Shown: positions 24,481 through 58,535 of the stretch, piece by piece
Layout of the letters: the number at the start of each line of letters is the position of its first letter
How positions within the stretch are numbered: position 1 is the first letter of the stretch
DNA from: Tubulanus polymorphus
Taxonomy: Eukaryota; Animalia; Nemertea
NCBI RefSeq assembly: GCF_964204645.1
Contig: NC_134028.1
Location: 15,259,653-15,323,652, forward strand
Direction of reading: 5' to 3'
Length of the DNA stretch: 64,000 nucleotides
Translations under genes and position numbers: made by a program
Notes under the pieces: model-generated
Database searches by the model: none
What the model saw: the letters and a program-made list of their open reading frames with translations, nothing else
Told to the model about the DNA's origin: nothing

Positions 24481-24590
24481 CGGTGTTGTCATATCGCGGA
24501 ATCGCGGAATTTACAAAAAACAGAATTTCTTCATTTTCACTATATATAGTAACCGCGTTTTATAGCACCCTGAGATTTCCGCATCACAAG

Positions 24591-24680
24591 AGTAATTAGA
24601 AGATGGCGTTTTCAGATCAGAGTACGAGAGTACGAGACACCACTCATCACCACAAGTAATTTTTTTTCCTAATAAATGGG
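24591..24680 (+). repeat. Polinton left terminal inverted repeat
   Basis: agtaattagaagatggcg...cctaataaatggg is the exact reverse complement of 41665-41754. Confidence 0.97.
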
Positions 24681-25002
24681 AGATAGAAAAGCATTCTTAG
24701 CAACAATAAATAACAGAATAAAACCAGCAAAAAAACAATTTGAAATAAAAAAGTTAGTTGATGTTACAAAAGAAATTGAACATAAAATATTGAAATTAGA
24801 AAAGATAAAAACTAAATATGGAGAGAAAGTATCAGCTAATTTAAGCTACTGTAATGTTAGTACATCGCGAGAATTTAAAGTGTTTTTACCCGATAAATGG
24901 GTTTCATTGAGTACGGAGGAATTGAAAGATTTAGTAGGATTTAAAATAATATATCATGGGAAAAATGAAGACGGTCATCATGATTTAGAAATTGTTGATT
25001 AA
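24676..25002 (+). CDS. Polinton small hypothetical protein (108 aa), possibly OB-fold-like
   Basis: Intact ORF starting inside the TIR at TAAATG. Beta-rich pattern KIKTKYGEKVSANL...FKVFLP...IIYHG. Confidence 0.7.
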   Translation: MGDRKAFLATINNRIKPAKKQFEIKKLVDVTKEIEHKILKLEKIKTKYGEKVSANLSYCNVSTSREFKVFLPDKWVSLSTEELKDLVGFKIIYHGKNEDGHHDLEIVD

Positions 25003-25374
25003 ATAAGAAATAAAAATAATGAATATCTAGAATCCAAAATGACCTTAGTCGTTTTATAAACAACTACAATCATACAGTACATCTGTTACATATTATTATA
25101 AGAGAGTGCTTCATTTGAATATTGATCAATCAAACAGGTGTTGCACAACGTTGTTGTTATAATAAGCCCGTAGTACATACAACACACACAAACCAGTTAG
25201 CTGGTATTGAATTACTGCGTTTTCATTAGTTGCTGAAAACGAGGTTTATTTAAATTAGCTCGGCCGTGACGACAGGAGGATAGTCATCATTCTCTCGTGA
25301 TTAAAAGGAATATTTCAATGTTTTTACGGTAAGTTTTAGCAAAATTGCCCTATCCTCGACCTACAGAGTTTTCA

Positions 25375-25559
25375 GGGGATAAGCATCCCATTATTGAAAG
25401 GCGCCACGGGACGCTTATCCCCCGTCATTTCTACTTACACCCCCGGAGACCCACGTCAACCGGGATCTCCTTCAATGATTGGTAGAAATCACATTATATT
25501 AAAGGCGCCTAATGTAATTTCTACCAATCTCGAAATTCGAAACCGAAGGAGAAACCCGG
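25375..25559. ncRNA. Candidate structured non-coding RNA or DNA element of the Polinton
   Basis: 15-bp stem 25375-25389/25408-25422, 20-bp stem 25477-25496/25510-25529 and enclosing stem 25460-25473/25545-25559. Both loops contain AAAGGCGCC. Confidence 0.5.
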
Positions 25560-25974
25560 AGAGTGGACGAAGGTGCATTTTCAAAATGCCTCTGCTGGCC
25601 AGAGCTACTCCAGTGGTTGAATGAATTGCCTTATATACTTAGCTAAAACACCTAAGTAAATGTTGTTGGTGCTAAAAAAATATGTGAAATTTGAAATTAT
25701 AAATTATTCCGAATGAAAAGAATGTAAGAATGAAAACTGATAAGTGAATTATGTATTTTTAACTTAATTATGATATAATTTTTAATCAAATTAGTAATCA
25801 ATTACTATGTTAATTGATTAACAAATTCAAATATTCAAATAAAAACAAAATAAATTAATAAAAATAATGAATATCTAGAATCCGAAATGACTTATCTGGA
25901 CAATTTAATTGCTCCGCATAGATAGACAAAAGTAGTGAGATATTCAATTATTTTTTTGCTTTTTTTCTAAAATA

Positions 25975-26343
25975 TTAATCCATTTTTTTTATTATCAATT
26001 TTGGAATTTCAGAAGTATTTTCATTTTTGATAGCAGTTGTTTCAGAATTACTAATATCATGAATTTTATTTGATTTCTTATACCAATTACACCCAATCAA
26101 AATGAATACAATTACAAATCCAACTGTAAAATATAAATATTTATCAAATATTCTATTATCAGAAGGAGTAGAAATAACAATATTTTCACCATTTTTATTA
26201 ACATTTTTATTACTTATTTTTTCTTTTACAGCTTTTTTATATTCTTGTGATTTAATTCCTAATTGTCGAGACCATTCAATTTGTTTCTGAGTTCTCGGTT
26301 TTTTCTTCACAGTTAATTCCTTCACTTCTTTCACCTCGCTCAT
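25975..26343 (-). CDS. Polinton single-pass membrane protein (122 aa)
   Basis: TAAATG start, basic N-terminus, hydrophobic YLYFTVGFVIVFILIGCNWY. Homolog at 63308-63676. Confidence 0.8.
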   Translation of the reverse strand: MSEVKEVKELTVKKKPRTQKQIEWSRQLGIKSQEYKKAVKEKISNKNVNKNGENIVISTPSDNRIFDKYLYFTVGFVIVFILIGCNWYKKSNKIHDISNSETTAIKNENTSEIPKLIIKKMD

Positions 26344-26881
26344 TTATTATAGAAATATTTTTACTTTCAATATTTGAAAATGTTATAACCCCAGTTGATA
26401 ATAATGTCATAAATCCACCTAATTGAAATGATAAATATCCAATCCATTTATTTAATTCAGTCATAACTAAATAGTCATTTTTTAAATCGGAATATAATCT
26501 ATTTTCATTTTCAATTGGTAGTATATAATTACATAATTTACTATAACCTTTTACTACATTTTCTGATATCGCGTCATTAATTCTAGCTGTTCTCGCGGCT
26601 TCATAAATCTTAAATAATCTAATAATTTCATCTGATTTCATTGTATCTAATTCATTATAAGTTAAATTTTTACCGACAAAATTTTTACATTTTCCAGATG
26701 CTATTAATATTTCTAATTGATGTTTACAGAAAAGATAATATTCATAATTATTATTTGTTGTAACATTATTTAAAGCACCATCATCTGGAGTTAATTTTGT
26801 TTCTGTTATTCCTAAATCATCTAAAGTTTTTTCAATTGAAACATCACCATTTTTAGATTTTATTTTCTTTTCACCTCCCAT
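26276..26881 (-). CDS. Polinton conserved hypothetical protein (201 aa)
   Basis: TAAATG start. Clear homolog at 62710-63315 sharing IEKTLDDLGI, YEYYL.CKH and LYSDLKNDYLVMTEL. Confidence 0.85.
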   Translation of the reverse strand: MGGEKKIKSKNGDVSIEKTLDDLGITETKLTPDDGALNNVTTNNNYEYYLFCKHQLEILIASGKCKNFVGKNLTYNELDTMKSDEIIRLFKIYEAARTARINDAISENVVKGYSKLCNYILPIENENRLYSDLKNDYLVMTELNKWIGYLSFQLGGFMTLLSTGVITFSNIESKNISIINERGERSEGINCEEKTENSETN

Positions 26882-26912
26882 TTATATAACAAAAAAATTA
26901 ATTGTGTGATGT

Positions 26913-27132
26913 TGCAACTAGAATTTAACTAGAATTCAACTAGATTAACAAGCTAGTTGAAATATTGTTAAATCTAGTTGATTTTTGTTTCAACTACTAA
27001 CAACTAGAATTCAACTATAATGTAACTATAATTAAAATAGATTAACAAGCTAGTTAAAATATTGTTAAATCTATTTGATTTTTGTTACAACTACCAATAA
27101 CTAGAATTCAACTAGATTAACAAACTAATTGA
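26913..27132. repeat. Intergenic AACTAG/CTAGTT-rich degenerate repeat
   Basis: About two copies of a ~110-bp unit (agattaacaagctagtt.aaatattgttaaatcta.ttgatttttgtt) plus many caactagaatt motifs. Confidence 0.75.
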
Positions 27133-27150
27133 ATTTAAATAAATTCATAT

Positions 27151-27741
27151 TTAAATGGGTGTTGTAATAAATAGTAATTTTGATCTTTTAATATTTTTCA
27201 ACTCATCCATATATTCATTATGTAAATCATGTGGAATAATATCATTTTCCTCAAGTGCATTTTTCATCGATTTTCTATCTTTATTGTAGAATAAAACTAG
27301 AAATCTAATGTTTTCTCTAAAGTCTTTAACAATTGAATTATATTTTTGATTTAAAACCCAAGTTGTTATCCCAAAATGTCTCCCAGAGAAAGCTAAATAG
27401 CATAATTCACTTTCTCTAACTTTTGAATCATGTAAATTTGCACAATCATCTATGATAAATAATGTATTTGATCCTTTATAAATATCAATTGCTATTTTTA
27501 TACAATTATCTAAATTTTCTTTTACTGTTTTAGGATCTAATATAATAAATTTATTATTTCTAGTAATATTTCTATCATAAGTTTGATTAAATTCATATGT
27601 TGGACAAAATAATACTATATTATCAAAATAGTTTTTGTAAATAGTTTCTAATAAATTTAATATAAAATAAGTTTTTCCACAATTTGTTACACCAGAAATT
27701 AACATATTATGAGGCTCAAATATGAATAATTCCTTATTCAT
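27151..27741 (-). CDS. A32/FtsK-like genome packaging ATPase
   Basis: Walker A ISGVTNCGKT, Walker B LFIIDDC, and A32-type GRHFGITTWVLNQKY...REN. Confidence 0.92.
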   Translation of the reverse strand: MNKELFIFEPHNMLISGVTNCGKTYFILNLLETIYKNYFDNIVLFCPTYEFNQTYDRNITRNNKFIILDPKTVKENLDNCIKIAIDIYKGSNTLFIIDDCANLHDSKVRESELCYLAFSGRHFGITTWVLNQKYNSIVKDFRENIRFLVLFYNKDRKSMKNALEENDIIPHDLHNEYMDELKNIKRSKLLFITTPI

Positions 27742-28869
27742 TTATATATTTTTAATTTTACTTGATAATATCCATTCATTAAATTTATCTGGCCATCCAA
27801 CCCATTTTACTAAAGAATATTTTTTTCTTTTAATAGTTTTTGTTTTTAATACTTTTTCAATTTTATATTCTTGTTCTAGATTTTCAGTAGTTAAACTTAA
27901 TTCTTCTTCGTAAAAGTAACCATCAACTTCTTCACCATCTAAATCTTCTAATTTATAGACATATGGTTTTGTTGTTATTACCTTTTTTATTTTATATATT
28001 TCCCTAGTAAAATTTCGATCGTATCCTTTGTCAAATATCTTTTTATACTTAGATATTCTAACATTTTGACCAACTTTAAATTTAGGTTCACCAAAATCAT
28101 CTACAAGAAATGCTCCATATAAATTATTCCAAACAATTTCAGCATTTTCAGGTTTTCTAGCATCAATAGGTTTCATTCCAATAGAAGAATGATAAGAATT
28201 ATTATATCCTTCTATCAATTTTGGTAAAACATCAATCCATTTAAAAGTATTATTTGCTGTAAAATATTTCCACATTCTTGTTCTTAATGTTCTATTAAAT
28301 CGTTCAACAACTGCTGCTTTTTTATCTGATTTTGTTGAAAAATATTTAATATTATGATTATCTAAGAGTTCATGAACAAGTGAATTATCAAATTCTTTTC
28401 CATCATCAAATTGTATTTTTTCTGGTTTTAGTTTATCATCCGAAAGAAATTTTCTTAAAACATTTGATGTTTGTACAGCATCTTTTCTATAAAGTGGGAA
28501 GCTCCATACATAACGACTAAAAATATCAATTATATTCAATAACCACCAATAATCATCATTATCTTTCTTAACATTTTTCATATCAATTAAATCTCCTTGC
28601 CACTGTTGATCTACATAACTTACCATAGTTTTACGAGTTTTATATTTTCTAACAATTTTTTTATGTGTTGTATATGTTGGTTGTTCTAACATAAATTCAT
28701 TTATATCTTTATATTTAACTAAATTTTGTGGGATTATCTTATCTAATTTATCTTGTTTTACTTTACGCCATATATTTTTAGTAGAAGAATAAGCAACCGA
28801 ACTCTCAGGGTTGTAATATAAATTTCTTAAATATTGTTCTTTAGTATTAGGAGTTTTTTTACCACTCAT
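27742..28869 (-). CDS. Retroviral-like (RVE) integrase with C-terminal chromodomain
   Basis: DDE triad in WQGDLIDM / QFDDGKEF / VVERFNRTL. C-terminal YKIEKVL...LVKWVGWPDKFNEWI chromodomain. Confidence 0.95.
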   Translation of the reverse strand: MSGKKTPNTKEQYLRNLYYNPESSVAYSSTKNIWRKVKQDKLDKIIPQNLVKYKDINEFMLEQPTYTTHKKIVRKYKTRKTMVSYVDQQWQGDLIDMKNVKKDNDDYWWLLNIIDIFSRYVWSFPLYRKDAVQTSNVLRKFLSDDKLKPEKIQFDDGKEFDNSLVHELLDNHNIKYFSTKSDKKAAVVERFNRTLRTRMWKYFTANNTFKWIDVLPKLIEGYNNSYHSSIGMKPIDARKPENAEIVWNNLYGAFLVDDFGEPKFKVGQNVRISKYKKIFDKGYDRNFTREIYKIKKVITTKPYVYKLEDLDGEEVDGYFYEEELSLTTENLEQEYKIEKVLKTKTIKRKKYSLVKWVGWPDKFNEWILSSKIKNI

Positions 28870-28899
28870 TTATATATCCTTAATTTTAACTTTATATTT

Positions 28900-30147
28900 C
28901 TAATATTGAATACTATCTAATTGTGAATTTACAATATTTAATTGTGCGTCAGATATAATATAAATGTGCATTTTAAAATTTTTGATTCCTTTATTCTTTT
29001 TCATGAATAATTGTATTCCATCTTTAGTGTTCTGTAGTTTTTTTCCAGAACCATGTAATGAATTATCTTCTGTTGTTCTAAAATCTAACCATAATGCATA
29101 TTTATTACCGGTATAATAATCAATTTGATTAATATTACAATTTTCAAATGATTTTACTTTTTCATTCATAAAATGTTTTCTAATTTCTGGCCATTGATCA
29201 ATCATTCTCATTCCTTGACAAAATATTTTATTCGCTATTCCTTCAATTGTTATTTCTACTTTTGTTATTTCAGGATTATAATAATTATCAACATTTATTG
29301 CACCATTAGAATATGTTGCAATAGTAAAAAATATTAATATACCTTTAATAGATCTTCTTGGGAAAATAATATTCTCATTAATTATTTCATCATTTGCATT
29401 GATAGTTACAGTTTTAAATTTATCAATATAATCATATAATAATGAAAATCCTTGATTGTATTGAGTTTGAATTGTGCTAGCAATATTTTCATTAGTTACT
29501 GTGTTATATTCTAAACATATATTCGATAATTTATAACCCATATCTTTAACAACGCTAGATAATACAATTTAATTTACAGGAGCAAATGTTATCTCAAATA
29601 TAATATCTTCTTGAATTGCGTATTTATATAAAGGTGCATTATTATTTATCAATTCAAAGTCTAATGGAATTTTATATTTGCTTCCATAAATCTTTTTAAT
29701 CAAATTATCTACACCATTATTTACTACTGCGTTATTGGCTTCAGATCTTAATTTATTTTGGTTTTCTGATTGAATTCCTTGAAATATCATATTATTTCTA
29801 TTTTCTTTAGTTAACCATAAATCTTTATAATGTGAAAATAAATTATAATCATCTAATGAGAAAACTGTTTCTGGACCAATCTTTATTGTTAACTTTTTAA
29901 TCAAATATCTTCCAACATTATCAACAACATAATTATTATTATTACCGATTACTTTTATATCGGCTGATAAATAAATACTGTTTGGAACATAAAAAGTATT
30001 TTGTGTTAATTGAGGGATTCTAACGTATAAAGTTTCATCGGGATTAATATTTGAAGGGTTATGAGTAATTATATGATGTGATCTTTCTGCTTTAATAGCA
30101 TTAGATATTCTATGATTCTTCGAAGGACTTATATAACTCCCACTCAT
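28900..30147 (-). pseudogene. Major capsid protein (double jelly-roll) with one in-frame stop
   Basis: The 192-aa and 213-aa ORFs are in the same frame, separated by TAA (29569-29571) and 9 sense codons. About 415 aa, beta-rich, with the size and position expected for a Polinton MCP. Confidence 0.75.
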
Positions 30148-30187
30148 TTATTTAACAAAAAAATTAATTATTTATTTTTTATCATGT

Positions 30188-31617
30188 TTACTTGATATTT
30201 TTTGATATCATATTCACTAACCCAAAAATAATAGCACTTACAACTGTAATTAAAAATAAAATAATATGTTCAGCAGCAAAGTTAATAATGTTTCAGATTT
30301 CAATATAAAACCAACAATTGAAGCAATAATTCCTGGCAATGCTGCAGCAGATTTTTTAGATAGTTCCCATAAATATTTTGCTAATTTTTTTAAAAAACCA
30401 TCCTTAACTTTATCTTGTATAGAATTATTTCCTGGAGGTTTATCTGGTTTATTTGGAGTAGATTTCAAAGCATTTGATATTGCTAAACCAATTGTTGTAA
30501 ATAACATAGTTACAGCTGTTAGAATTGAAAGAATTGTTATTCCTTCTAATTTAAATAATAACTTCATCCTGTCTTTTAATGATATTTCAGAATTTGGTTT
30601 AATCAACAAATCTTTAAAAATAACTTTTAATCTATTAATATTATAATCATATGATTTTAATAATAATTTAATTTCTTCTTTCTGTACTTCTAAATTATCT
30701 TTTAAATTACTAATTTCTTTTTCTAAACGTAATTCTTTTTGCCTATATTCTATTTCATCAATTACTTGATGATCTAAATCAGACTTTAATTGTTCTATTT
30801 CTTTATTTTTATCAGTTAATTCTTTTTCCAAATACATAATTTTTTGATCTCTTATACTTTTATTATGTGCAATTTTATCAGATGCAAGTCTTATACTAAT
30901 AATTTCTCTAATTGCTTTATCAGAAAATATATCTAAATCTTCTAATTCTTGATCTGTTGCATCAAATAATCCATTCGGTAAAAGTTTTTCAATTGGAACT
31001 TTATTTGATCTAAGTTTACTATTTTTGGAAGTTATATTCTGTTCAGAAGTTGTTTCTGTTTCTGATTTCTTTTTGATTATTTCAAATAATTCATTAATTC
31101 TTTGTTTAAATACATCTATATTATCATCTATTTCTTTTTGTGTAACATCAGTTATTTCATTACTATTACTTATTATTTTAATTCTATCTGGTTTTAATTT
31201 TTCTAAAGTTGATTCTGATAATATTTTATTTTTATTATTTTTATAAGTGATATCAATATAATAATCACCTTTCAAACGATAATAACATTTACCATTATCT
31301 AAAAATTTCAATTGATCTGCTAAAAGTCCAACGTCTTCATCATTTATGTTAAAATTAGATTTTTCAATTAAATCTTCTAATTTAGGTATTTTGTTTAAAT
31401 TATCTAAATCTTGTTTTACTAAATCTGGGTCTAAATTTTCAGGATTTAATTGTGATTCAGCATTTTTAATATAATCAGGCATATTCAAATTATTATTATA
31501 TTCTGGCTCATTACCATCATTAAAACTTGTTTCATCAAAATCAGGTGGTTGTTCATCAGTTATGTTAGGTTCATCAAAAGGATCCATTCCAATATCTTCT
31601 CCACCTTCTACATCCAT
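30188..31617 (-). CDS. Coiled-coil membrane protein (~475 aa, probable frameshift near 30290)
   Basis: Acidic N-terminus, long heptad region, hydrophobic GITILSILTAVTMLFTTIGLAI and AAALPGIIASIVGFIL. An alternative frame continues NIINFAAEHIILFLITVVSAIIFGLV to a stop at 30188. Confidence 0.7.
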
Positions 31618-31633
31618 TTATATAATAAAAAAA

Positions 31634-32962
31634 TTAAAATTTAAAATATAATATTCCTCCTATAACAATTCCTATACAAGTTATAGCTAATTTAGTATTT
31701 TCATGGAATTTATTATCATCATTTAGTTTAATTACATCATGTTGAATTTTATCGGTTTTAATATCACCATGTGGGTGCCGTACGGCATCATTTTCTGATG
31801 TATTGTAATCTTTTATTTTAGAATCATTATTTAATTTAATATTCTTAATTTTAGTTTCAGTTGATTGAATGTGTTTTTTATTTTTTTCACCTTCCATTAA
31901 TTTTGGAGCAGTAATAAACTTTTTATTTATATCATTTAATCCAAATGAATTATTTATTGTTGCAGTTTTAATTAGATTATTATAACCAATTATACTACCC
32001 ATTTTTAATATTAAATCATTAGAAATAATTAATAGATTAGGGCCTATACAATAATTAAGTCTTACATGAGATTTATCTAAATAATTTTGATATCTTATAA
32101 TGTTTTCTGGAATCGATCTATTTTTATCATTATGAATTGAATCTTCAAATAAAACTTTAAACTGTTTCTGCGCATCGAATGAAGTGTTATCATTTCCAAT
32201 TATTTGGGATCTTGTTTCAACTTGAGCGCCTAAAATACATATCAAATAAATTCTAATAGATTGATTTATTCTTTGTATACCTGATTTTGTAAAACCTTCA
32301 CCATTTTCTAAAATGAAATTAACCCAACCATTATTATTATCAATTTTATAATTATGATAAGCTCCAATTCTATGCATATAATCAATTCTTTTTATTTCAT
32401 ACTGTTCACCAACACCTTGCAATTTACCATGCGCTCTGAAATCGGAATTAATATTTATATTAAATTCATTACATATTTTATAAAACTTGGATATATTAAT
32501 ATTATTATCCAATTCTTTAAAATATTTAGACCCGGGTAAAGGACATTCTAATTCATTTAATATTATTCTGATTTGAAAATATGTGTGAAATCTAAATATT
32601 GTGTGAATTAATTTTAAATCAGAATACTTCAAATTTTTATCTAAGTTATTTAAATGATCATTCCAACTTATTTCACATCCTGTTGTTGCACAATAAACAG
32701 CAAAATTTAATTGATTCTGCCAATATTTCATATTAGATTTTACTTTATACATATGATATTCATCTCGAGTAAAAGTAACTTCATATGTATTAAATATATT
32801 TTCCATTTTAGAAATAAAAAACTGTGATTCAGTAACATAAATTTCTAAATTAGTTAATGAATTTAAAACTATATTTTTATATGTAATATTTTTCTTAAAA
32901 TCTATTGCCGGAATATTATATTTAATTGATTTATTATATTGGAAAGCTTTTGGAAACCCCAT
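31634..32962 (-). CDS. Polinton hypothetical protein with C-terminal membrane anchor (442 aa)
   Basis: Long ORF with TAAATG start and C-terminal LAITCIGIVIGGILYFKF. Confidence 0.8.
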   Translation of the reverse strand: MGFPKAFQYNKSIKYNIPAIDFKKNITYKNIVLNSLTNLEIYVTESQFFISKMENIFNTYEVTFTRDEYHMYKVKSNMKYWQNQLNFAVYCATTGCEISWNDHLNNLDKNLKYSDLKLIHTIFRFHTYFQIRIILNELECPLPGSKYFKELDNNINISKFYKICNEFNININSDFRAHGKLQGVGEQYEIKRIDYMHRIGAYHNYKIDNNNGWVNFILENGEGFTKSGIQRINQSIRIYLICILGAQVETRSQIIGNDNTSFDAQKQFKVLFEDSIHNDKNRSIPENIIRYQNYLDKSHVRLNYCIGPNLLIISNDLILKMGSIIGYNNLIKTATINNSFGLNDINKKFITAPKLMEGEKNKKHIQSTETKIKNIKLNNDSKIKDYNTSENDAVRHPHGDIKTDKIQHDVIKLNDDNKFHENTKLAITCIGIVIGGILYFKF

Positions 32963-32978
32963 TTATATAACTAAAAAA

Positions 32979-33413
32979 TTAATAATTTATTAATTCTTTT
33001 AATAATTTATCTTGTTCTTCAACTGTTATATGGCCATTTAAACTTATTATATAATCTAGTGTGTTCTTTAATTTATTAATTTCTTTTATATTAGTTTTAA
33101 TTTTTTCTTTATTACTTTTTATATTTAATTTTGAACTTATACCGGTTAAAACACTTGAACTTAATCCTAATACACCAATTGATATAGCTAAAGGTGTTAA
33201 TGGGCTGAATATTGCTAAAAATGTTATTACAGAACTAATCGTAACCGAACCACTTATAATCAAATAATATATAATTTTACTTTTTAAATATTTTTTCTTT
33301 TTTATCTTTAAGTCACTTTCAAATTCTAATATTTGTTTTTCTAAATATATTTTTAATTTAGTTTTATTTATATCATGAGGAATAATATCAATACTATCAA
33401 CTTTATCTTCCAT
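32979..33413 (-). CDS. Two-TM hairpin membrane protein (144 aa)
   Basis: TAAATG start. Central hydrophobic stretch flanked by basic coiled-coil segments. Confidence 0.78.
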   Translation of the reverse strand: MEDKVDSIDIIPHDINKTKLKIYLEKQILEFESDLKIKKKKYLKSKIIYYLIISGSVTISSVITFLAIFSPLTPLAISIGVLGLSSSVLTGISSKLNIKSNKEKIKTNIKEINKLKNTLDYIISLNGHITVEEQDKLLKELINY

Positions 33414-33432
33414 TTATTTAGAATAAAAATTA

Positions 33433-33855
33433 CTAATTAGTAAACTTATAAGCAACAAATATAACAATAACTGTTCCACCTAAAATCCATATTATTTCAT
33501 ATTTCTGTTGTTCTTTACTTGGGGTATAATAATCTGATAATTTAGGTTTGTATAGATGTAATTTTTCTTTATTTGTTACTGCGTTATATAAACTCATTGC
33601 ATCATCAACTGATTGAAAATCTCTATGTGAAATCTTCTGATCATATAATTCTTTATTGATGTAATCCATATAGTTTTGCCTCTTTTCTCTATATTCTTCT
33701 GCAGCTTTATTGTATTTCTCTAACGCTAAGTTATGTCTTCTTTGTTCTCCTAATGAACTATTTTTATCAATATGTTTAAATAAATAACCACCACCAGTAA
33801 ATGCTAAAGCGTTAACAATTGCTGATCCTATAATAGTTATAATTGCAGAAGCCAT
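33433..33855 (-). CDS. Membrane-associated protein (140 aa)
   Basis: TAAATG start, hydrophobic N-terminus MASAIITIIGSAIVNALAFTGG and C-terminal IIWILGGTVIVIFVAY. Confidence 0.8.
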   Translation of the reverse strand: MASAIITIIGSAIVNALAFTGGGYLFKHIDKNSSLGEQRRHNLALEKYNKAAEEYREKRQNYMDYINKELYDQKISHRDFQSVDDAMSLYNAVTNKEKLHLYKPKLSDYYTPSKEQQKYEIIWILGGTVIVIFVAYKFTN

Positions 33856-33880
33856 TTATTTAGCAAAAAAAATTATGCAT

Positions 33881-34096
33881 TTATATGGGAGGAATATATT
33901 TTTGTTTTTCTAAATAATCAATAGTTAAATTAGATAAAGTAACTGCTAATGTTAATTTTAGAATATCATTGATATCAAATCTATCAACATTTCCCATTTT
34001 GAATACTTTTTTTAATACCATTGAATAACCAACAGTTCCAACTGATAGTAATGCTCCATTATATAATCCAGTTATTATCCACTTATTATCACTCAT
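33881..34096 (-). CDS. Small hydrophobic protein (71 aa)
   Basis: TAAATG start. A related copy at 58354-58500 conserves the frame. Confidence 0.78.
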   Translation of the reverse strand: MSDNKWIITGLYNGALLSVGTVGYSMVLKKVFKMGNVDRFDINDILKLTLAVTLSNLTIDYLEKQKYIPPI

Positions 34097-34456
34097 TTAT
34101 TTATCAAAAAAATTACTATCATCAAAATATTTAGTTATCTTAGTGATTATTAATTCAACATTTATTTTATTACTAGTTTTATGATTATCATATATTTTGG
34201 ATAATATGTTTTTAATATCATCGATGATAAAATCTTCATCTAATTCATAAAATCTTAAAGATTCTCTAATTAAATTAGTAATCTTTTCTACATTTAAAGT
34301 TTCTTTATCAATTGTTGTTTCATACTCAAATGTTGTTTCATAAGAAAATGCAATATTTTTGATATGTGTAATTACATCATTAATATTAAATTTCATTTCT
34401 TTCTCACGTTTAAAATCAAACCCAAAACATATACTCGGTCCAACAGTTATATTCAT
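34097..34456 (-). CDS. Polinton hypothetical protein (119 aa)
   Basis: TAAATG start; its stop abuts the next ATG. Confidence 0.7.
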   Translation of the reverse strand: MNITVGPSICFGFDFKREKEMKFNINDVITHIKNIAFSYETTFEYETTIDKETLNVEKITNLIRESLRFYELDEDFIIDDIKNILSKIYDNHKTSNKINVELIITKITKYFDDSNFFDK

Positions 34457-34472
34457 TTATATAGGTGAAAAA

Positions 34473-35225
34473 TTACTCTTTACATCTTATAACTAATTCA
34501 TAAATTACAGGAAAGTTATTCAAATCAATTAAGTATCCATTATGATTTCTTATTTCTAATTTAAAATTATTAAATTGAGGAATACAAGGTTTGAAATCAC
34601 ATTCAGCTAAATTATAATTTATTTGCGTTCCAAATTCTTTAACATTCTTCAATGGTAAAATGTTTAGTAAACCAGAATTACAAGTTATATCTTTAGTTGC
34701 TTCGAATGTTTTTGTAGGATCAATTAAATTGCAATAAATATAAAAATGTGTAAAAGGCATTAAGTTTGATTTACCTTCTGCGTATGCTGTAACAATATCT
34801 GGGTTAATTCCTAACAGTTTACCTAAAGGTTTTCTTACTGTAAATTTAAATTGTTCGTCTAACCTAATCTTTATTTTATTAGAACTAGCACTTTTTAAAA
34901 TTCTAATATTAAATCCAGAATCACTTCCTAATTTAGCTCGAGCTTTTCTATTAATTTCTTGTGCTAATGTATTTAAATTATATAATCCTGGTTTTAAATA
35001 TATAAAAAACCATTTATTCCTTTTTTTATAAAAGATTGAAAAAATTAAATGTTCAAGACTTTTATCCGTTACATTGTAAAAAGAATTACATAAACTTATA
35101 TTTACTAATTTTAAATCAACGCAATTCTTAAATTCTCTATCTAATTGTACTAATAAATTATGAGATTTATAATTTGTAAGTTTTCTAGAATCAACAAATA
35201 TTCTGTATTCTTTTAATTCTACCAT
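34473..35225 (-). CDS. Minor capsid protein (penton, single jelly-roll)
   Basis: Pattern IFVDSR...NSFYNV...PGLYNL..L...IN...LLGI...YIYCNLI...KLEIRNHNGYLIDLN..PVIYELVI, typical of Polinton/NCLDV pentons. Confidence 0.8.
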   Translation of the reverse strand: MVELKEYRIFVDSRKLTNYKSHNLLVQLDREFKNCVDLKLVNISLCNSFYNVTDKSLEHLIFSIFYKKRNKWFFIYLKPGLYNLNTLAQEINRKARAKLGSDSGFNIRILKSASSNKIKIRLDEQFKFTVRKPLGKLLGINPDIVTAYAEGKSNLMPFTHFYIYCNLIDPTKTFEATKDITCNSGLLNILPLKNVKEFGTQINYNLAECDFKPCIPQFNNFKLEIRNHNGYLIDLNNFPVIYELVIRCKE

Positions 35226-35293
35226 TATTTATAACATAAAAAAATTACCGCTCATCACTAAAAATTAATTTTAATAAAATTTTTCCTTAATAA

Positions 35294-36610
35294 ATGGATG
35301 AGACGATAGCATGCGAAATTTGTGGTGAACTTCTAAGAAAAAGTAATATGGCTCGACATATGAAAAAACATGATGAAAATTATAAACCCCCTAAAATAAA
35401 CTGTCCAAATTGTAATAAAACATTCTCTAGAAATTATTTCAAAAAACATTCAGAGAAGTGTAAAAATAATAACTTAATAGTTAATGTTGACAGTAACGAA
35501 AGTAATAATAATTCTGTTGAAGTTGAACCTGAAATTATTTGGAAAAGACCTTTCTTATTCTATGATAAGGATAATATAAAAGATCATTTCTGTGAGCCTT
35601 GTCGAATAAAATATAACCCTGAAAATATAGAAGATTGGGAGAATCATCAATTTCGTAAAGTACATATAGATAAAATTTCTAATAAATTTGAAACTGAATT
35701 CAATGCAAGAAAAAATAATTTATTAGAAAAAATAAAATATGAGAAAACGTTACCAGATAATGAAGAAACAGTTGAAAAGTTAGAAAAACAATATAATGAA
35801 TTAACAAGAAAAACATATTATTGTAAATATTGTAAATTGATTATTACAACAAGTAATTCAAATCTACATAATAGAACAATAAAACATAAAGAAAACGTAA
35901 GAAAATACCAAGAGCTTAATGAAGATCTATTACCAGTAAATTATAAACAAAAATGCCCACAATGTATTTATGCGACCTTAAGGCAAGAAGGTACTGTGTT
36001 ATTTTGTGTTGATTGTGGATGGCAAAGGAATTTATGGGGTGAAGAAAAAACTAGAAATTTTCTTATAGAACCAAAATTAAATTATCTTGATGAAATTTTT
36101 AAAATATTTTCTATAGAAGATCATACACCAGAATATATGCAATGGCTTGAAAAAATGAAAATAATAGAAAATAAAAATGGTGAAATAACTAAAAAAGATA
36201 TTATAAAAACAATTATTCCACCAACATTTAACACAAAACAAAAGAAAATGTATTTATATTTATTATTTAACGATTATTATGAAAAACCTAAATTAACAGA
36301 AGAAGATATGGAAAATATAAAAAAAATATTTAAACAAATATTAATATATCATTTGGAAAATAGAATAACAGATTCAATAAATTATGAATTCTTTTTAAAT
36401 AAGATTGTAAATTATTTAAACCTAGATATTATAATTCCATTTGATGAATTAACAAACAAAAAGAAACAAAGAGTGCGAGATGAAATGTGGAACAAGATAG
36501 AAATTTATTTAAATGAGAAAAATGGAATGGAAGAAGAACCTGAACAATTAAATGAAAATGAAGAAGCTAATAGTGATTTCGAGTATGATGATATTGATTT
36601 TATGTTTTAA
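35294..36610 (+). CDS. Zinc-finger protein with C-terminal VLTF3-like (poxvirus A2 / NCLDV late transcription factor 3) domain
   Basis: Four N-terminal C2H2/C2HC fingers and a CPQC..CVDC ribbon, then PKLTEEDMENIKKIFKQI...SINYEFFLNKIVNYLNLD...LTNKKKQRVRDEMWNKI, matching the VLTF3 C-terminal pattern as I recall it. Confidence 0.72.
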   Translation: MDETIACEICGELLRKSNMARHMKKHDENYKPPKINCPNCNKTFSRNYFKKHSEKCKNNNLIVNVDSNESNNNSVEVEPEIIWKRPFLFYDKDNIKDHFCEPCRIKYNPENIEDWENHQFRKVHIDKISNKFETEFNARKNNLLEKIKYEKTLPDNEETVEKLEKQYNELTRKTYYCKYCKLIITTSNSNLHNRTIKHKENVRKYQELNEDLLPVNYKQKCPQCIYATLRQEGTVLFCVDCGWQRNLWGEEKTRNFLIEPKLNYLDEIFKIFSIEDHTPEYMQWLEKMKIIENKNGEITKKDIIKTIIPPTFNTKQKKMYLYLLFNDYYEKPKLTEEDMENIKKIFKQILIYHLENRITDSINYEFFLNKIVNYLNLDIIIPFDELTNKKKQRVRDEMWNKIEIYLNEKNGMEEEPEQLNENEEANSDFEYDDIDFMF

Positions 36611-39600
36611 TGGCTATAAGGTAATGTTTTTATACCATCATCTGAAATATGCCTTTTATCATCAAATGGATTTAAACTAGTTTTTTCAACTTCATTAATG
36701 TACATCTCATGATCTTCTGATCTTAAACAATTCATTTTGTGTTTCATTACAATTGATTTATATAAACACTTTATATAATCTTGAAATTCTATATGTTTAT
36801 CAACCACATGTTTTGTTATTCCTTTTAACTTTTTAGCTTCATGATCTTTTGTTCTGTAACTATACATTTTACTTCTTATCCCAACAAATTCAATCATTTC
36901 ATCACCCCCTAATTCATCTTTAAATTTACCAGGAATCTTTTTATTATCATTGCTAAACAATTCATGATCTTTGGGGTAATTGCTAAAATCAAAATAATGT
37001 TTTAATGTTTTTAAGTCTTTTGTTATATTATTTGTCTTGATTTTTAGTATGTAGGCGTCAGTATTGACCGCTATTAATGGAAATCCACAGTTAAATGTAC
37101 CATCTTCAGTTGATAAATCATAAACATAATCTGTTGGGTTATATATTTCAAATAAATCCTTAACTTCTTCTGTTAACTCATTTTCTACATGGCTTAAATT
37201 AAAGCAATTTGGTTTAGATTTAATCAATCCAATATTCATATTAAATCCTAATGAAGTGCATAATATATTCAATCCTGATATAGCAACTTTTCCTTTTTGA
37301 GCTAAAGATATTGTTTTGCGGTTTTGGAAACTTTTTGAACCATCTGCTGCATAGAATCCAATGAAGAACCATTTTCTTAAATTATTTTTTGCATTTAATA
37401 CATAATCTGGAACTATCTTTTCTTTTGTTGAAGTATTACTTTTCACTATTGCATGAATATAGAATTCGTTATTATATTTTATAGCAAAATCTTTAGGATT
37501 ATTCACATGTATTCTATAACATTGTGATGATTTCATAACATCTATGATTTTGAATGTTTTATGTGAATAAACTTCTTCACAGAATTTCTTAATTCTTTCT
37601 AATAATTTTTAAGTCTTGATTGCATAAATACCAACAATATTTAGTTCCACTAACATAATTATACACACCTGCTGAACCATCACCCATGAAAAATCCTTTG
37701 ATAAAATATTCTTTTTCTTCCAATGTTTCGGGTTCTATATTATAAATATTATCAATTATTTCATCAAATGATATATGATTCATTCTTAGGAAAAATCTTT
37801 TATGTAATAATTCATCTCCAATTTTTATATCAGTTGGTTTTATTTCATTACCATTTTGTTTAATCAAACTATGGTCTTCAGTAATATCAACAAATCCTAA
37901 TTTAGTTCTAACTCTATAGATTTTCTTATTCGTTTTATGTCTAATTATATTCTTTAATTTTGTCCATCCATTTCTTGTCCAAACATCCATTAAACCATTT
38001 ATTTGTATTAATTCTTTTTCTCCATATGAAATATAACATTCATTTTGTTTTGGAATTATTTCTGAAATTCTTCTTATCAATATTTTATCATTACATTTTA
38101 ATAATATTGGGGTGTCTGCTGTAACAGAATCAAAGTATAGAATTTCTATATTCTTTTCCCCAAAATGAGGTTGTAATACATTATAATAGAATTCATACAT
38201 TAGTAATTTTGATAATTCTAAAACAGTCGAACCAATAAATATAGGTTTATTGAATTTAATAGACGTTCTTTTTAATTTTACCGCGGTTAAATAATCCTCA
38301 AATCTTTTATTTCCTAAATGTCTAGGACTTGATTGTAGGTGTCTCAATCGTTCAGAATTATTTACTAATTCAATATCATTTCTATTTCTAATATTTTCAC
38401 ATGTTTTACCATAAAAACTATTATTCATTAATTTGAAGAAATCTTTTTCAAAATCTGTTTTTGATATGGTTCTCTGTTGAGTATTGAAATCTATATATTT
38501 TTCTAACCACTTTGATTGATTAAATTCAATATATCTATGTACTTTCTTTAATTTCATTCCTTGTTTTAGATAAAATTTTAACATTCTATAATGAACAATA
38601 TAATTGTATTTATTATTTTGAGTAAGTATTAATTTTTCTGTAAAAACATGATCTTTCGGTTTTATTTTCTTCTGGTATTCACTTAAATAACTATCATCTA
38701 CAGTTAAATGTTCTGGGCAATAAGGTAAGTTTCTTGTTTTAAACTTTATATTTTCAGGATATTCTAAATCAACTACAAAGAAATAACCAATTGGTGCTTC
38801 ATCTTTTAAACTAATAATTGCGCTTTCCCAATCAGTTTTATCACCATTTTCAACTTCTGTTAATATAAAATTTTTATATGGTTGAGGTTGCATCATTGCC
38901 CAACCATATAAATTATTGGCGTCAATATATAATAATTTATATTCATCATTTGCTTTAAAATACCTATCTCCCATAACACCACTAATTCCACCTCTAATTG
39001 ATTTTTCAAATAATAAAACCATATCTGGTTCTTTTAATAAATCTAATTCTACATTTGTATATTTTAAACCACATTGCCAGGTTAAACCAGGACTAGAATA
39101 ACAATAACAAGGATCAACATTAAAATGATTCAAATTAACTTCTCTAAATTTTTCAAATATGTCAGCCAATATCATAACATCTGATTTTAAATATAAATCA
39201 ACTAATTCACCATGATTTTTCATCTTAAAATGGTTCCAAATATTTAATGTTCTATTAAACACTTCATCTTTCACATACTCCTCTTTTAATTGATCATAAA
39301 ATTGATCTTTTAATAATTCTGTTACATTAAAATCATCATGTGTTTTATAAAATGAATAAGGAATTGCGCCTTTATATCTCAATAATTTAAAATCTTGTTC
39401 ATTTGGATAATAATATCGAGTTATAACAAAATCATTATCAACTAAACTTTTTGATAAATTATCTAATGAACTTGCTAGAAATCTATAAGAATCTAAAAAT
39501 CTAATGCAACCAAATTGAAATGAAATATAATTTTCAGATGTTTTAGCTAATAGTTTAAAATCATATTTTCTTACATTTATACCATTCATAGCATTATATT

Positions 39601-41669
39601 CTTCTATTTCTTGATTAATTGCGCCCAATTTTCCCGATAATTGTTTTATAAATAGATGGGTATCATAGCCTGATAAATTATGAAATAATATTGGTACGAA
39701 ATTAACTTTCTTAGCTTGTAAATTGCAATCTTCATGAGCAGCTCCACGATATTTTGAATTCAAATGATCATGATCTCTAACTCTTTTATCAAATGAATAA
39801 AAACGTTTTTCACAATAACAACAATGAGTTGCATAATTAAAATCAATTTCATCTTCTTTTGTCATAACTATTCTTTTATTTTTGTTTAATAATTTTGTAA
39901 AATCACTTTCTAATTCAATCACAACAAAAATCATTAACTACATTTTCACCTCTAAAAGAAATATATTGACTTTCATATAATTCGGGATAATTTGATTTGA
40001 TGTAAATTCCATAAGCAGCAGCTCTTTGATGAACTTTTTTAATTGTATTTATAATTGGTGGGTCTTGTATTGCGTCTTCATTTAATTCATTTCCTTTATC
40101 CATTGATTTTAATAATTGCTTTTTGTTATATATTTCTTTTCTATCTTGATCAGTTAATTCTTTATTCAACGATTCAAAATCCCCATAAATTACAAATGGA
40201 ACAATATTTTTAAATTTATGATTAGTAAATTTCAATTTATAATCTTTTTCTGTTGGCATTATTAATTTACAAAAATCTTTATTATCACATAATTCTTTAT
40301 GTTTTAATAATGTATTCTCAGTTCTAAATTTAGATAAACATTTTCTACATAGATAAATTTTATGGCTGTTAAAATCACTTTCTGTTCTAAAGAATAAATC
40401 AATTTGATTTAACCACATATAATGTTCATTTTCATCTTTTTTGTAATATAACAAATCTATAGCATTTTCATCATCATAATATTCTGTTAAATATAAAGCT
40501 TCCAATGTATAATCTTTAATATTTTCACCTTTTGTCTTTGGTAATTGCATTAATTCGAATACATTTATTTTTAAATTATTAATTTTTTCGATTTTAGGAA
40601 TCATTTTTATAGTTACTGGATATTGATCAATTTTATATAATGTTTCATATTTCCGATAATCTGTTATTCTACAAACATTTTCCTGTGTTGGATGTAAGCA
40701 ACTAATAATTGACCATAGAAAACATTTGTTGTCTTCATTTTGAACATTTATTACTGCTTTTGTTGTAAACGGTAATTTGATATAACTTGATGCTTTCATA
40801 TCTTTTTCTGTTATAAAGTTTGAATCATTTTTAAACATTTTATTACTTTTTGATGTTTTATTTCTTTTTGTATTATAAACATTTAAATCTAAATATATAA
40901 TTTCATTCAATGTTAAGCCAGAACCCTCAAAATATCTTTCTTCAATATGACGTTTAAATTCATTTAATATTTTTTCTAACTTCTCTTTTATTTGTGTTTT
41001 TGAAATTATTTCTTCAGAGTGTGTTTGAATATTATAATTCATTTTTTCTTCTGACTTTATAAAACTTACTTTCCCAGAGATACTAATTTTTGGATATTCA
41101 ACATCTGTTATCAAATCTAGTAATTTTTCTATTATTTCATTAAATTTACTATAATCTTCTATTGTTGTACCTTTAAAGAATCTAAATATAATAGCTGCAG
41201 GACCAATTTTACTATGTAATGTTTCTAAGATTTCAATTGTATCTTTTATTTCTAGTGAATCAATATAATTTCTAACATTTTCCATGTAAGGTTTATTTGA
41301 AATGGATTTAGTTTTTGAAGTTGGTTTTTTTACTTTTTGAGTTTTATCGTCAAAATAATCTTTTCTTAAAACATTATTACTCAAATTTTGGTGGTGTTTT
41401 TGTGATTCGAGATGTCTATTATAATTCCTTTTTACTATAAATTCATTACAAACTTCACATTTTATTTCATCCACATTCATATTTTCTAATCGTTCTTTTC
41501 TTTCATTGGAATTTTCTGGAGTTTCAAAATCTATAACATTTTTTATATGATTTGAAGATTTTTCATGTTTAGATTTATTAGATTTATCGATGTATTTTTT
41601 ACAATATTGACAATAATATTGATTTTTATTGACATTATTGTTTTCTAGTTGGTGTTCATTCTCCCCCAT
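36607..41669 (-). pseudogene. Protein-primed family B DNA polymerase with intein and two frameshifts
   Basis: Exo I YGDFES, Exo II FHNLSGYD, Exo III YLKSDV, Pol A YIDANNLYG, Pol B KLMNNSFYGK, Pol C YFD/TDA, GKFKDE and RSKMY. EndoVII-like CCYC..DHDH..CN insert. Frameshifts at ~39925 and ~37607. Confidence 0.95.
37063..38128 (-). mobile_element. Intein with LAGLIDADG homing endonuclease (~355 aa) in PolB motif C
   Basis: Block A SVTADTPI, block B VDITEDHSL, LAGLIDADG motifs FIKGFFMGDG and FFIGFYAADG, block F YVYDLST, terminal Asn followed by +1 Thr. Removal restores YFDTDA. Confidence 0.92.
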
Positions 41670-41754
41670 TTATTAGGAAAAAAAATTACTTGTGGTGATG
41701 AGTGGTGTCTCGTACTCTCGTACTCTGATCTGAAAACGCCATCTTCTAATTACT
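41665..41754 (-). repeat. Polinton right terminal inverted repeat
   Basis: Exact reverse complement of 24591-24680. Confidence 0.97.
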
Positions 41755-42920
41755 CACAAGCACAGGCTAACTACGTTAAAAATCCTTAAGTCGACGATCA
41801 GGAACCAACGACGAGAAAACGTTCCTAAAACTTCAAACCGTAAATTTCACTTTATTTTCTTCGATATATCGGAGAGACGAGGCTGGACATCCAACCCGCT
41901 CAAAAGCTACAACTCGAATCTTTGATTTCTTTCAACAAATTTTCAACCAGGATACTATTACATAAGACACCAAGGGTGGCAGAGACCAGAAGGCAGTTAT
42001 CGAAACAATACACACTGACTGACACTTCAAGTACATTTCTAAAACAAACAAACAGTCTGACACTCCAAAACTGACTGACACCCTGCCCCCTTAGTAACAT
42101 CAATGAAAATAAGACGATATTTGTAAAATAAGAAATAGAAATCATAAACAAGACATAAAAATGCTCTGTTAATTTAGACTAAATTTAGTTAAATATCTAC
42201 GCTGTGATAGTTTTCCCGTGGGGATACCCACTGCCGGACATGGCACCGGACCGATCGATGCACTGAGTTATGTTCGAATCCCATTATTTGCAGGCTATTT
42301 CATCGGAAATTATGCGATTCCGTTGACTGGCTGCAACCTACAGCAGCAGCCAGAATCAAGTAGGAAGAAGAGATCACCTGGGCGAAGTTCGGTTATCGAA
42401 GTTAGTCGACTTTTTGCGAACTTCAGAACGAATATTATCAGTTGAATTTGAGCACCGTTCGACCTGGCCGTAGTTCGTGGTTCCAAACTTGGGGTCCTAG
42501 GACCAAACAAGTACCGATTTAGTAACAATATGATTTTTATTTGATTCAAATAATCAGCAACAAATATGTAATAGCTGTCATTAAGAAAACCAGCGGCATC
42601 TAAAAAAACGAAACCATTTTATAATCTCTAATATCATTTCATTTCGTAAACTTTCCCAGGTAAACTACTGATTTACCACCGATTTTATTTGATTCGTTCA
42701 GTATAGTACACTGCGATACTGTGCATCACAGATTAAGTTGTTGACTGGCGATATAATGAATTATCACATACTGGTACCCGTTTATGAAAACATCTGTCCG
42801 ATGCCTTGTCCGACAGTAGGTATCCCCACAGGAAAACCCGGTTACGATTTATAGTGAAAATGAAGAAATTCCGTGTTTTTGAAAAATTCCGCGACTCCGT
42901 TCCTCGATATGACAACACTG

Positions 42921-43126
42921 CAGATTATGATTCAATATTTTCTGATATATTCTCGGCCCATGCCGATTAATAACAGGGCGATTTTACGGCTGTTGGGTGC
43001 AGTTCCTTTTTCAGTTGCCACGAGATAATTTTCAAACTCACATTCAAAATCTCTCCATTCCCCGATTAAATTGTTACATGCGAGCCTCTGTGGGCTAAAC
43101 TTCGGCGGGGACAACTTTTCCATCAC
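42921..43126 (-). pseudogene. Ty3/Gypsy gag remnant, 5' part
   Basis: NLIGEWRDFECEFENYLVATE...RKIALLLIGMGRE is a typical gypsy gag N-terminus and joins 24480 across the TSD. Confidence 0.8.
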
Positions 43127-43139
43127 GACAGGCTTGAAA

Positions 43140-43431
43140 CTTCTGACACCATGTTATGTTTGTCCCGATGCATAATGATTTAAACTCAAGCCGACCAAAA
43201 GAATAGAACGGCAACCATTGATATCTTGTATCAATCTACAAAATTTATTTTCGCCAGATGGCGACACCACACAGTACAGAGTATTCATGAGGTGAACAAT
43301 GACCAGTATGTATGGTGACTAAGTAAACTGTAATTTATTTCTCTACTCAAAACAGCATATTCATGCGGGGCTTACATAGGCTGGGTTAGATGTACTGAGG
43401 GGAGTACGTTACTGGCAACTGTCAGACAACA
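43140..43431 (-). mobile_element. Primer-binding site and probable 5' LTR of the Gypsy element
   Basis: Minus strand reads ...CATAACA|TGGTGTCAGAAG (LTR end plus tRNA-complementary PBS). AATAAA lies within. The outer TG boundary near 43431 is tentative. Confidence 0.6.
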
Positions 43432-58350: not shown

Positions 58351-58353
58351 TCG

Positions 58354-58535
58354 ATGGTATTAAAAAAAGTATTTAGAATGGGAAGTATTAATGTTGATAG
58401 ATTTGATATAAATGATATCTTAAAATTAACATTAGCAGTTACTTTTTCTAATTTAACTATTAATTATTTAGAAAAACAAAAATATATTCCTCCTATATAA
58501 ATGCGTAATTTTTTTACTAAATAAATGGCATCTGC
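58354..58535 (+). pseudogene. Isolated Polinton fragment (3' part of the 71-aa gene and start of the 140-aa gene)
   Basis: Encodes MVLKKVFRMGSINVDRFDINDILKLTLAVTFSNLTINYLEKQKYIPPI*, then TAAATG-MAS. Closely matches the reverse complement of ~33845-34021. Confidence 0.9.

Follow-up and report, generated by a model that had tools for sequence, protein, structure and literature searches.

A Polinton gene that joins four zinc fingers to a VLTF3-like domain, and the poxvirus-late-like promoter sites of its element

Little is known about gene expression in Polintons, and those of animals might be autonomous viruses or might depend on other viruses. Both issues are raised by one gene in the DNA analysed here, a stretch of 64,000 nucleotides from Tubulanus polymorphus (hereafter the window), in which an integrated Polinton carries an open reading frame (ORF) whose product unites four zinc fingers with a domain that recalls the poxvirus late transcription factor VLTF-3. 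What would such a factor do in such an element, and which RNA polymerase would it serve? The preliminary description of this DNA, made from the letters alone, had noted the VLTF3 likeness, counted four fingers and placed the gene on the forward strand at 35294-36610; its observation is confirmed, with the ORF boundaries exact, and its interpretation is partly supported. The frame stays open over 438 codons at a G+C content of ~23%, and it is more than a chance ORF, as relatives exist and the architecture recurs in two other protein clusters. The 438-residue protein begins with its four fingers, which lie between residues 7 and 198. They are followed by a C4 zinc ribbon at 221-241, a helical domain that spans 251-409 and, last, an acidic tail (411-438). 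These parts are placed in the window as follows:

24591..41754, no strand: integrated Polinton of 17,164 bp with G+C ~0.23, defined by terminal inverted repeats (TIRs), target duplication and gene content
35294..36610, + strand: finger and VLTF3-like gene, 438 amino acids, stop codon included in the coordinates (ORF list and VLTF3 homology)
35312..35371, + strand: zinc finger 1, C7-X2-C10-X11-H22-X3-H26 (C2H2; translation, CTCF finger match, ligands kept in 4 of 4 fused relatives)
35402..35461, + strand: zinc finger 2, C37-X2-C40-X11-H52-X3-C56 (C2HC; translation and a weak zf-C2HC_2 row, E 0.014, under the cut-off)
35591..35665, + strand: zinc finger 3, C100-X2-C103-X14-H118-X5-H124, with long U1/matrin-like spacing (translation and ligand conservation)
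35822..35887, + strand: zinc finger 4, C177-X2-C180-X11-H192-X5-H198, of the zf-U1 type (Pfam PF06220)
35954..36016, + strand: C4 zinc ribbon, C221/C224/C238/C241 (aligned cysteines, strands in the AlphaFold models)
36044..36520, + strand: helical VLTF3 domain, residues 251-409 (Pfam, profile, model and fold search)
36524..36607, + strand: acidic tail, residues 411-438, predicted to be disordered (predicted local distance difference test score, pLDDT, <50 in both AlphaFold models)

The C-terminal half is almost certainly a VLTF3 homologue. For this likeness the preliminary description had proposed a Pfam search with the Pox_VLTF3 model and a fold comparison with AlphaFold and Foldseek, and both bore it out. 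Scanned alone, residues 207-438 matched PF04947 (Pox_VLTF3) at 27.0 bits (cut-off 25, E 4.4e-6), with the match spanning residues 330-407 (36281-36514). A phmmer search with the same half retrieved four proteins at E <= 0.001 among 1.84 billion representatives, of which two are fused (P0002, 697 amino acids, 2e-45; P0003, 446 amino acids, 1.7e-22) and two are stand-alone and finger-less (P0004, 281 amino acids; P0005, 226 amino acids). P0005 is a plain VLTF-3, scoring 87.2 bits with PF04947 and 24.7 bits with the A2L zinc ribbon, and it is 63% identical to VLTF-3 of the Amsacta moorei entomopoxvirus. Seven proteins were retrieved by a profile of the window half and the four phmmer matches; six of the seven have PF04947 and three are named as entomopoxvirus VLTF-3. 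Since P0005 could have driven this result, the profile was rebuilt without it and without any other accepted VLTF-3; its members were the window protein, P0004 and the corresponding stretches of P0002 and P0003. This VLTF-3-free profile scored 32.2-46.3 bits on all six VLTF-3 proteins (E between 3.8e-7 and 7.6e-3 for a database of 1.84 billion). In five of the six the alignment began at the ribbon (profile position 11-14) and reached the end of the helical domain (212-215); P0010, which is shorter and has no ribbon, aligned from position 78. A profile from the three fused proteins alone gave 23.6-45.9 bits on VLTF-3 proteins, and by BLASTP the window protein was 37% identical to P0007 over 78 amino acids. 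Identity to entomopoxvirus VLTF-3 is just 21-23% over the aligned half, and neither a word-indexed homology search with the whole 438-residue protein nor a PHROGs search with the window protein returned a match.

The zinc ribbon and the helical pattern behind it read as the preliminary description had quoted them, as CPQC...CVDC (residues 221-241) and then, in the helical part, SINYEFFLNKIVNYLNLD...RDEMWNKIEIY. The ribbon cysteines align with the A2L ribbon of entomopoxvirus VLTF-3 and are (nearly) invariant across 10 sequences; the PF08792 ribbon model gave no row for the window protein. The AlphaFold model of the C-terminal half reached a pLDDT of 76.9 and a predicted template modelling score (pTM) of 0.63, and the full-length model 71.5 and 0.39, respectively. 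When the half was compared with viral models (BFVD) using Foldseek, the top match was cowpox VLTF-3 (E 1.5e-7, template modelling scores 0.55/0.57), and next came the VLTF-3s of the Melanoplus and Diachasmimorpha entomopoxviruses and many VLTF3-like proteins of giant viruses. At E <= 0.001 there were 13 matches (7 named VLTF3 or late factor, 4 unnamed, 2 otherwise named), and a phaeovirus protein, FirrV-1-B20, was match 9. Among solved PDB structures Foldseek found none at E <= 0.001 (best E 0.023), and vaccinia Rap94 and TFIIB chains led the weak rows. VIA-align against solved structures gave a best Z of 6.3 (cyclin F) and 4.9-5.8 for TFIIB and Brf, a level that the tool rates as a possibly common helical arrangement. 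With TFIIB, Brf and vaccinia Rap94 the modelled half would have in common a zinc ribbon at the N terminus and, behind it, a helical domain of cyclin-like kind, and these proteins supply the weak structural rows; however, there is no sequence similarity and no structural match that the tools treat as meaningful, so that a TFIIB-like nature of the predicted fold is only a lead and serves as a working analogy.

In the N-terminal half, the translation holds four Cys2-His2-type units, and the full-length AlphaFold model has a strand-strand-helix unit at each of them. Fingers 1 and 2 resemble CTCF-type C2H2 fingers (PDB sequence search, 1x6h_A, E 4.3e-5), finger 4 matched zf-U1 (PF06220) at 28.8 bits (cut-off 22, residues 174-205), and the P0003 finger that aligns to finger 3 matched zf-C2H2_jaz (6.6e-6). 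All 16 metal ligands are retained in the fused relatives P0002, P0011, P0012 and P0003, at 33-46% identity. The same type of finger occurs in the N-terminal piece of the element's DNA polymerase (39915-41669, - strand), where zf-U1 scored 21.5 bits, just below the cut-off, and where BLASTP aligned the fingers with fingers 4 and 1 of the factor (5e-5 and 1e-4, respectively). The polymerase of a related locus, L001 (see below), likewise bears N-terminal fingers.

The factor gene is transcribed divergently from the structural block, as the preliminary description had stated: the penton-like gene (34473-35225, - strand) lies back to back with it across a gap of 68 bp (35226-35293). On its other side it converges with the polymerase gene, with a 4-base overlap. 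The link between VLTF3 and TAAATG that had also been proposed holds in the element. We inspected 18 ORF starts and excluded 28900-29541, 36607-37536 and 37589-39934 as downstream pieces of broken genes, which left 15; in 14 of these TAAATG lies over the start codon, the exception being the penton-like gene with TAAATAATG. A run of 5-8 T stands 5-8 bp upstream in 12 of the 15, mostly as TAATTTTTTT. The element contains 12 T5/N4-8/TAAATG sites where chance would give 1.3 (none of 300 first-order Markov simulations had more than 5), and 11 of the 12 fall at gene starts, whereas the 46.8 kb outside it hold three, one of them in a related-element fragment. The sites at gene starts include:

35280..35296, + strand: promoter-like site of the finger and VLTF3-like gene, with T5, a 6-bp spacer and TAAATG over the start codon
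35223..35249, - strand: back-to-back promoter-like site of the penton-like gene, with T7, 6 bp, TAAAT and then AATG
26879-26897, - strand: T-run/TAAATG site at a gene start
30145-30163, - strand: T-run/TAAATG site at a gene start
31615-31633, - strand: T-run/TAAATG site at a gene start
32960-32978, - strand: T-run/TAAATG site at a gene start
33411-33429, - strand: T-run/TAAATG site at a gene start
33853-33872, - strand: T-run/TAAATG site at a gene start
34094-34112, - strand: T-run/TAAATG site at a gene start
34454-34472, - strand: T-run/TAAATG site at a gene start

Poxvirus late promoters are described as a T-rich core that a spacer of 5-7 bp separates from the initiation site, which reads TAAAT with G or A as the next base (PMC5294985). 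The geometry of the element's putative promoters is, as far as it can be read from the DNA, this same geometry. With one pox-type factor and one uniform promoter of pox-late geometry on almost every gene, transcription of a Polinton becomes directly testable, and so does a possible tie to viruses of the poxvirus type. A reading of the T-runs as splice acceptors was ruled out, as an AG stands between T-run and ATG in just 1 of the 12 sites.

Two further features of these sites deserve mention. The ATPase gene (27741), the integrase gene (28869) and the ORF at 25975-26343 (26343), all on the - strand, have an A-rich upstream element (AGT(T)AAAAT..A-rich..ATAAATG) and no T-run, and this promoter class could mark another temporal class. 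At the intergenic sites from 26879 to 34472, the T-run mostly abuts the TAA stop codon of the upstream gene (TAATTTTTTT), yielding T5NT, the signal for early termination in poxviruses; a single motif might end one transcript and start the next.

The element itself is a complete Polinton and forms a 16-kb island of low G+C (22-25%) amid DNA of 33-42% G+C. Its TIRs are 99% alike, with arms of 94 nt as detected and 93 nt within the element, the outermost base belonging to the target duplication. Because the TIRs start with AG and a copy of CACAAG adjoins the element at either end, it was delimited as 24591-41754 with a 6-bp target-site duplication; TIRs and a 6-bp duplication are hallmarks of Polintons/Mavericks. 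Its other features are:

24585..24590, no strand: target-site duplication CACAAG, left copy (sequence)
24591..24683, + strand: left TIR, beginning AG, with a T8-N5-TAAATG site at 24660-24678 (inverted-repeat search)
27151..27741, - strand: A32-type packaging ATPase (Pox_A32, 51.2 bits, cut-off 22.8)
27742..28869, - strand: rve integrase with a chromodomain-like end (rve, 41 bits, cut-off 32.6; Chromo below its cut-off)
28900..30147, - strand: probable major capsid protein gene (Capsid_N, E 0.0024, below the cut-off), with an in-frame stop at 29569-29571
34473..35225, - strand: penton-like gene, first of the structural block (weak DUF5901, E 4e-4, below the cut-off)
36607..41669, - strand: gene of a protein-primed DNA polymerase B, split here into three ORFs (Pfam DNA_pol_B_2, 70.4 bits, cut-off 25.8)
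41662..41754, - strand: right TIR, holding the promoter-like site of the polymerase gene at 41667-41685 (inverted-repeat search)
41755..41760, no strand: target-site duplication CACAAG, right copy (sequence)

Pfam scans of the element's other ORFs showed no RNA polymerase, no VLTF2/A1-like factor and no other late-transcription protein, and no ORF matched an adenovirus-type cysteine protease in Pfam at E <= 0.5, several ORFs having no assignment. The flanks contain few long ORFs. One is a Forkhead exon, to which FoxO/FoxK clusters of animals are the closest; an animal host is therefore probable, and we treat the element as an animal provirus.

The family extends beyond this copy. A metagenome profile scan with the family alignment found one locus, L001 (6,508 bp, 21% G+C), with the same convergent pair of factor and polymerase genes, where P0002 is the fused factor, with 46-47% identity over the VLTF3 half, and the polymerase is 80% identical over 615 aligned amino acids, so that the factor evolves, to judge by these identities, much faster than the polymerase. 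Both L001 genes have a T-run/TAAATG start, and the sequence upstream of the factor differs little from that in the window; both elements seen (2 of 2) thus combine the factor with the promoter and the gene order. In IMG/VR, scans with the family alignment and with P0004 found nothing, and a scan with P0006 found the Amsacta moorei entomopoxvirus record only, which served as a promoter control (L002).

Illumina reads labelled with the same species were mapped over 28800-43500. Depth per strand was 20-283 inside the element and 7-10 in the right flank, and over the finger and VLTF3-like gene it was 56-92, or ~7-11 times the flank. Among the 19,851 mapped reads, 17,445 were 95-99% alike and 2,406 were at least 99% alike, and the family is thus multi-copy and moderately diverged in the source organism. 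The window copy has the in-frame stop in its capsid gene (29569-29571) and two breaks in the polymerase frame, near 39915-39934 and 37536-37606, of which the latter lies within an intein. At all three breaks the reads from other copies depart from the window sequence, and among the length differences listed for other copies none lies within 35294-36610. At 35226, upstream of the penton-like gene, 184 reads depart from the window sequence, and the factor-side junction is therefore variable among many family members.

The preliminary description had also placed VLTF3 outside the canonical Polinton gene set. This holds for the core set; a VLTF3 homologue has, however, already been published in a polintovirus subgroup, as the report on stony-coral polintoviruses (PMC11131425) states, citing Krupovic & Koonin 2016. 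The same report finds an entomopoxvirus-like gene (an AMEV120 homologue) in >40% of elements, an adintovirus paper has 'VLTF' in the legend of its Fig. 6 on MELD viruses (PMC8502044), and a 2026 preprint reports VLTF3 in ~30% of two clusters of Polinton-like viruses (PLVs), the Zephyrvirus clusters (10.64898/2026.06.19.733378). As in the window, VLTF3 is in these cases an accessory gene of a Polinton-type element, but the available texts of these reports, figures and supplements aside, mention neither a finger fusion nor TAAATG promoters. Our literature search likewise found no TAAATG promoter set for a Polinton, Maverick, adintovirus, polintovirus or virophage and no finger fusion, either of which figures or supplements could hold. 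The presence of VLTF3 in some polintoviruses is therefore already known, and the four-finger fusion and the pox-late promoter set were not found in print.

Compared with poxvirus VLTF-3 (vaccinia A2L and entomopoxvirus proteins, PF04947 plus PF08792), the window protein has the same C4 ribbon followed by the same helical domain, its best fold matches are the cowpox, Melanoplus and Diachasmimorpha models, and its presumed target genes share the TAAATG start of poxvirus late genes. In contrast, it has ~206 additional N-terminal residues with four fingers of C2H2/U1 type and the acidic tail, and it is encoded within an integrating Polinton of 17 kb that yielded no match to a polymerase or to a further late factor. 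A second parallel is the promoter mimicry of virophages, in which Sputnik and mavirus use the late promoter of their giant virus and PgVV an early one (10.1101/2022.07.28.501842). They too are small capsid-encoding elements lacking a polymerase, with genes under one uniform virus-type promoter, whereas here the promoter would be of the poxvirus late type, the element has its own copy of a late factor, and a probable animal host stands beside no known helper.

These observations lead us to favour, tentatively, an account in which the finger-extended VLTF3 starts transcription at the element's own pox-late-type promoters, likely by way of the polymerase of a co-infecting pox-like virus. The preliminary description had supposed that the protein would redirect a helper virus's polymerase or compete for it. 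The account's two parts do not stand equally firm: that the factor acts on the element's own promoters is probable, and that the polymerase is supplied by a helper virus is possible, at somewhat less than an even chance. The ribbon and the helical domain would contact polymerase and promoter as in poxvirus late initiation, and the fingers would add affinity for the T-run/TAAATG DNA or, given their U1/JAZ type, for the nascent RNA-DNA duplex. Poxvirus late transcription initiates inside TAAAT and produces a non-templated 5' poly(A) head, and in poxviruses a start codon inside the initiator works only by means of such slipped heads. Since TAAATG overlaps the start codon, transcripts of the element would have no templated leader, from which we infer initiation of the pox kind with a slipped 5' poly(A) head; this step, the weakest of the account, would point to a pox-type polymerase. 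As no RNA polymerase was found in the element, that of a co-infecting virus would be a likely source, and a pox-like helper would fit both the poxviral nearest relatives and the poxvirus-like base composition.

Several points weigh against this account, some of them touching the homology on which it is built. The PF04947 match covers just positions 83-165 of the 168 in the profile and exceeds the cut-off by 2 bits; the scan of the whole protein gave 19 weak Pfam rows without PF04947, even at E <= 10; and the model matched two of five scanned proteins (the window half and P0005), with P0002, P0003 and P0004, scanned whole, unmatched. Nor is the fold match fully independent of the sequence match, because the input alignment of the model contained entomopoxvirus VLTF-3. 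In the control L002, a 20.7-kb entomopoxvirus stretch, TAAATG stands at the start of 7 of 19 ORFs, but in no case with the T-run, and because of this the element's promoters are no copy of that virus's; they would resemble the general poxvirus late design. Poxvirus VLTF-3 works jointly with other late factors, and Pfam scans of the element's ORFs gave no match to these partners. We know of no helper virus for the source organism, and no RNA run was found to contain the element. Finally, a nuclear phase is evident from the integrase, the target duplication and the abundance of germline copies, and RNA polymerase II of the host would suit it just as well.

If a helper is needed, virophage-like biology would extend to animals and to the poxvirus lineage. 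The fullest form of the helper account would make the element a virophage-like parasite of a poxvirus-type virus, resident in an animal genome, whose own finger-armed VLTF3 pulls the helper's polymerase onto its late promoters. We regard this as rather unlikely; if true, no such partner was known before for the poxvirus lineage, and the element would connect Polintons with poxvirus late transcription as a living link.

The strongest alternative keeps the factor and the promoters and replaces the helper with nuclear host RNA polymerase II, so that VLTF3 would be a private TFIIB-like factor of an autonomous, adenovirus-like Polinton with a helper-free late programme. It has a serious though less than even claim. 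Integration into chromatin, to which the rve integrase with its chromodomain-like end and the 6-bp target duplication attest, speaks in its favour, as does the multiplication of the family in the genome (the depth excess over the factor gene). Nucleocytoplasmic large DNA viruses (NCLDVs) include families without a polymerase of their own, such as the phaeoviruses and chloroviruses. The host polymerase is a live alternative for this reason, VLTF3 being an NCLDV core gene in these polymerase-less families too. That VLTF3 is a core gene of all NCLDVs is stated in PMC5294986. Consistent with this, phaeovirus FirrV-1-B20 is among the fold matches, and TFIIB, Brf and cyclin chains are the commonest rows among solved structures, at just Z 5-6.3, the level of a possibly common arrangement. 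However, TAAATG over the start codon would leave a polymerase II transcript without a templated 5' leader, the layout of T-run, spacer and TAAAT is the one described for poxvirus late promoters, and the closest relatives in sequence and fold are poxviral. If the host polymerase nevertheless suffices, VLTF3 would be a portable initiation factor, which would bear on the role of a giant-virus core gene that is universally conserved and mechanistically obscure.

In a further alternative, which we consider improbable, the protein is a DNA- or RNA-binding regulator of some other step (repression or latency, recognition of the genome ends for protein-primed replication, or packaging) and VLTF3 is a scaffold only. 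Since fingers of the same kind occur in the polymerase's N-terminal piece, their target could be a feature shared with replication, and U1/JAZ-type fingers are described as binders of RNA or double-stranded RNA (family names; ZFa match, E 0.036). Yet the conserved core is the VLTF3 part, where the invariant positions lie and which exists without fingers in P0004 and P0005; moreover, when nearly all genes have one uniform promoter, a factor to match it is to be expected, and no other transcription-type protein was found. That the gene is a decaying, non-functional passenger in a dead transposon copy, as the capsid stop and the two polymerase frame breaks might suggest, is very improbable given an intact factor ORF of 438 codons, TIRs that are 99% alike, reads of other copies that differ from the window at the three breaks, and an architecture kept with all its metal ligands at 33-46% identity in other clusters.

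Beyond these arguments, the element shows several features in its own right. The intein of the polymerase gene (~37063-38128, - strand; ~355 amino acids with a LAGLIDADG-like domain) starts with Ser within the YFD|TD(S/A) motif, the exteins ending in ...ILYFD and resuming with TDAYIL, and the L001 polymerase has no intein and reads continuously. An ORF of 108 amino acids at 24676-25002 (+ strand) starts within the left TIR, shares its promoter and first codons with the polymerase gene and has no family match. The ORF at 32979-33413 (- strand) encodes a small protein with two transmembrane segments and a weak SLATT_fungal match (E 0.0038, below the cut-off); SLATT genes appear in map legends for MELD viruses (PMC8502044) and PLVs (10.64898/2026.06.19.733378). 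Outer inverted repeats at 24472-24561 and 42833-42929, 83-87% complementary, bracket the insertion at low read depth, and a cluster of short palindromic repeats lies just to its left (24050-24309); the Polinton may sit inside another repeat structure. Elsewhere in the window, a fragment at 58351-58535 is ~90% identical to 33845-34024, and a second, related element of low G+C begins at ~62388 and continues beyond the window end (64000), 75-88% identical to 25872-28842; its ORF at 62710-63315 starts with TAAATG as well.

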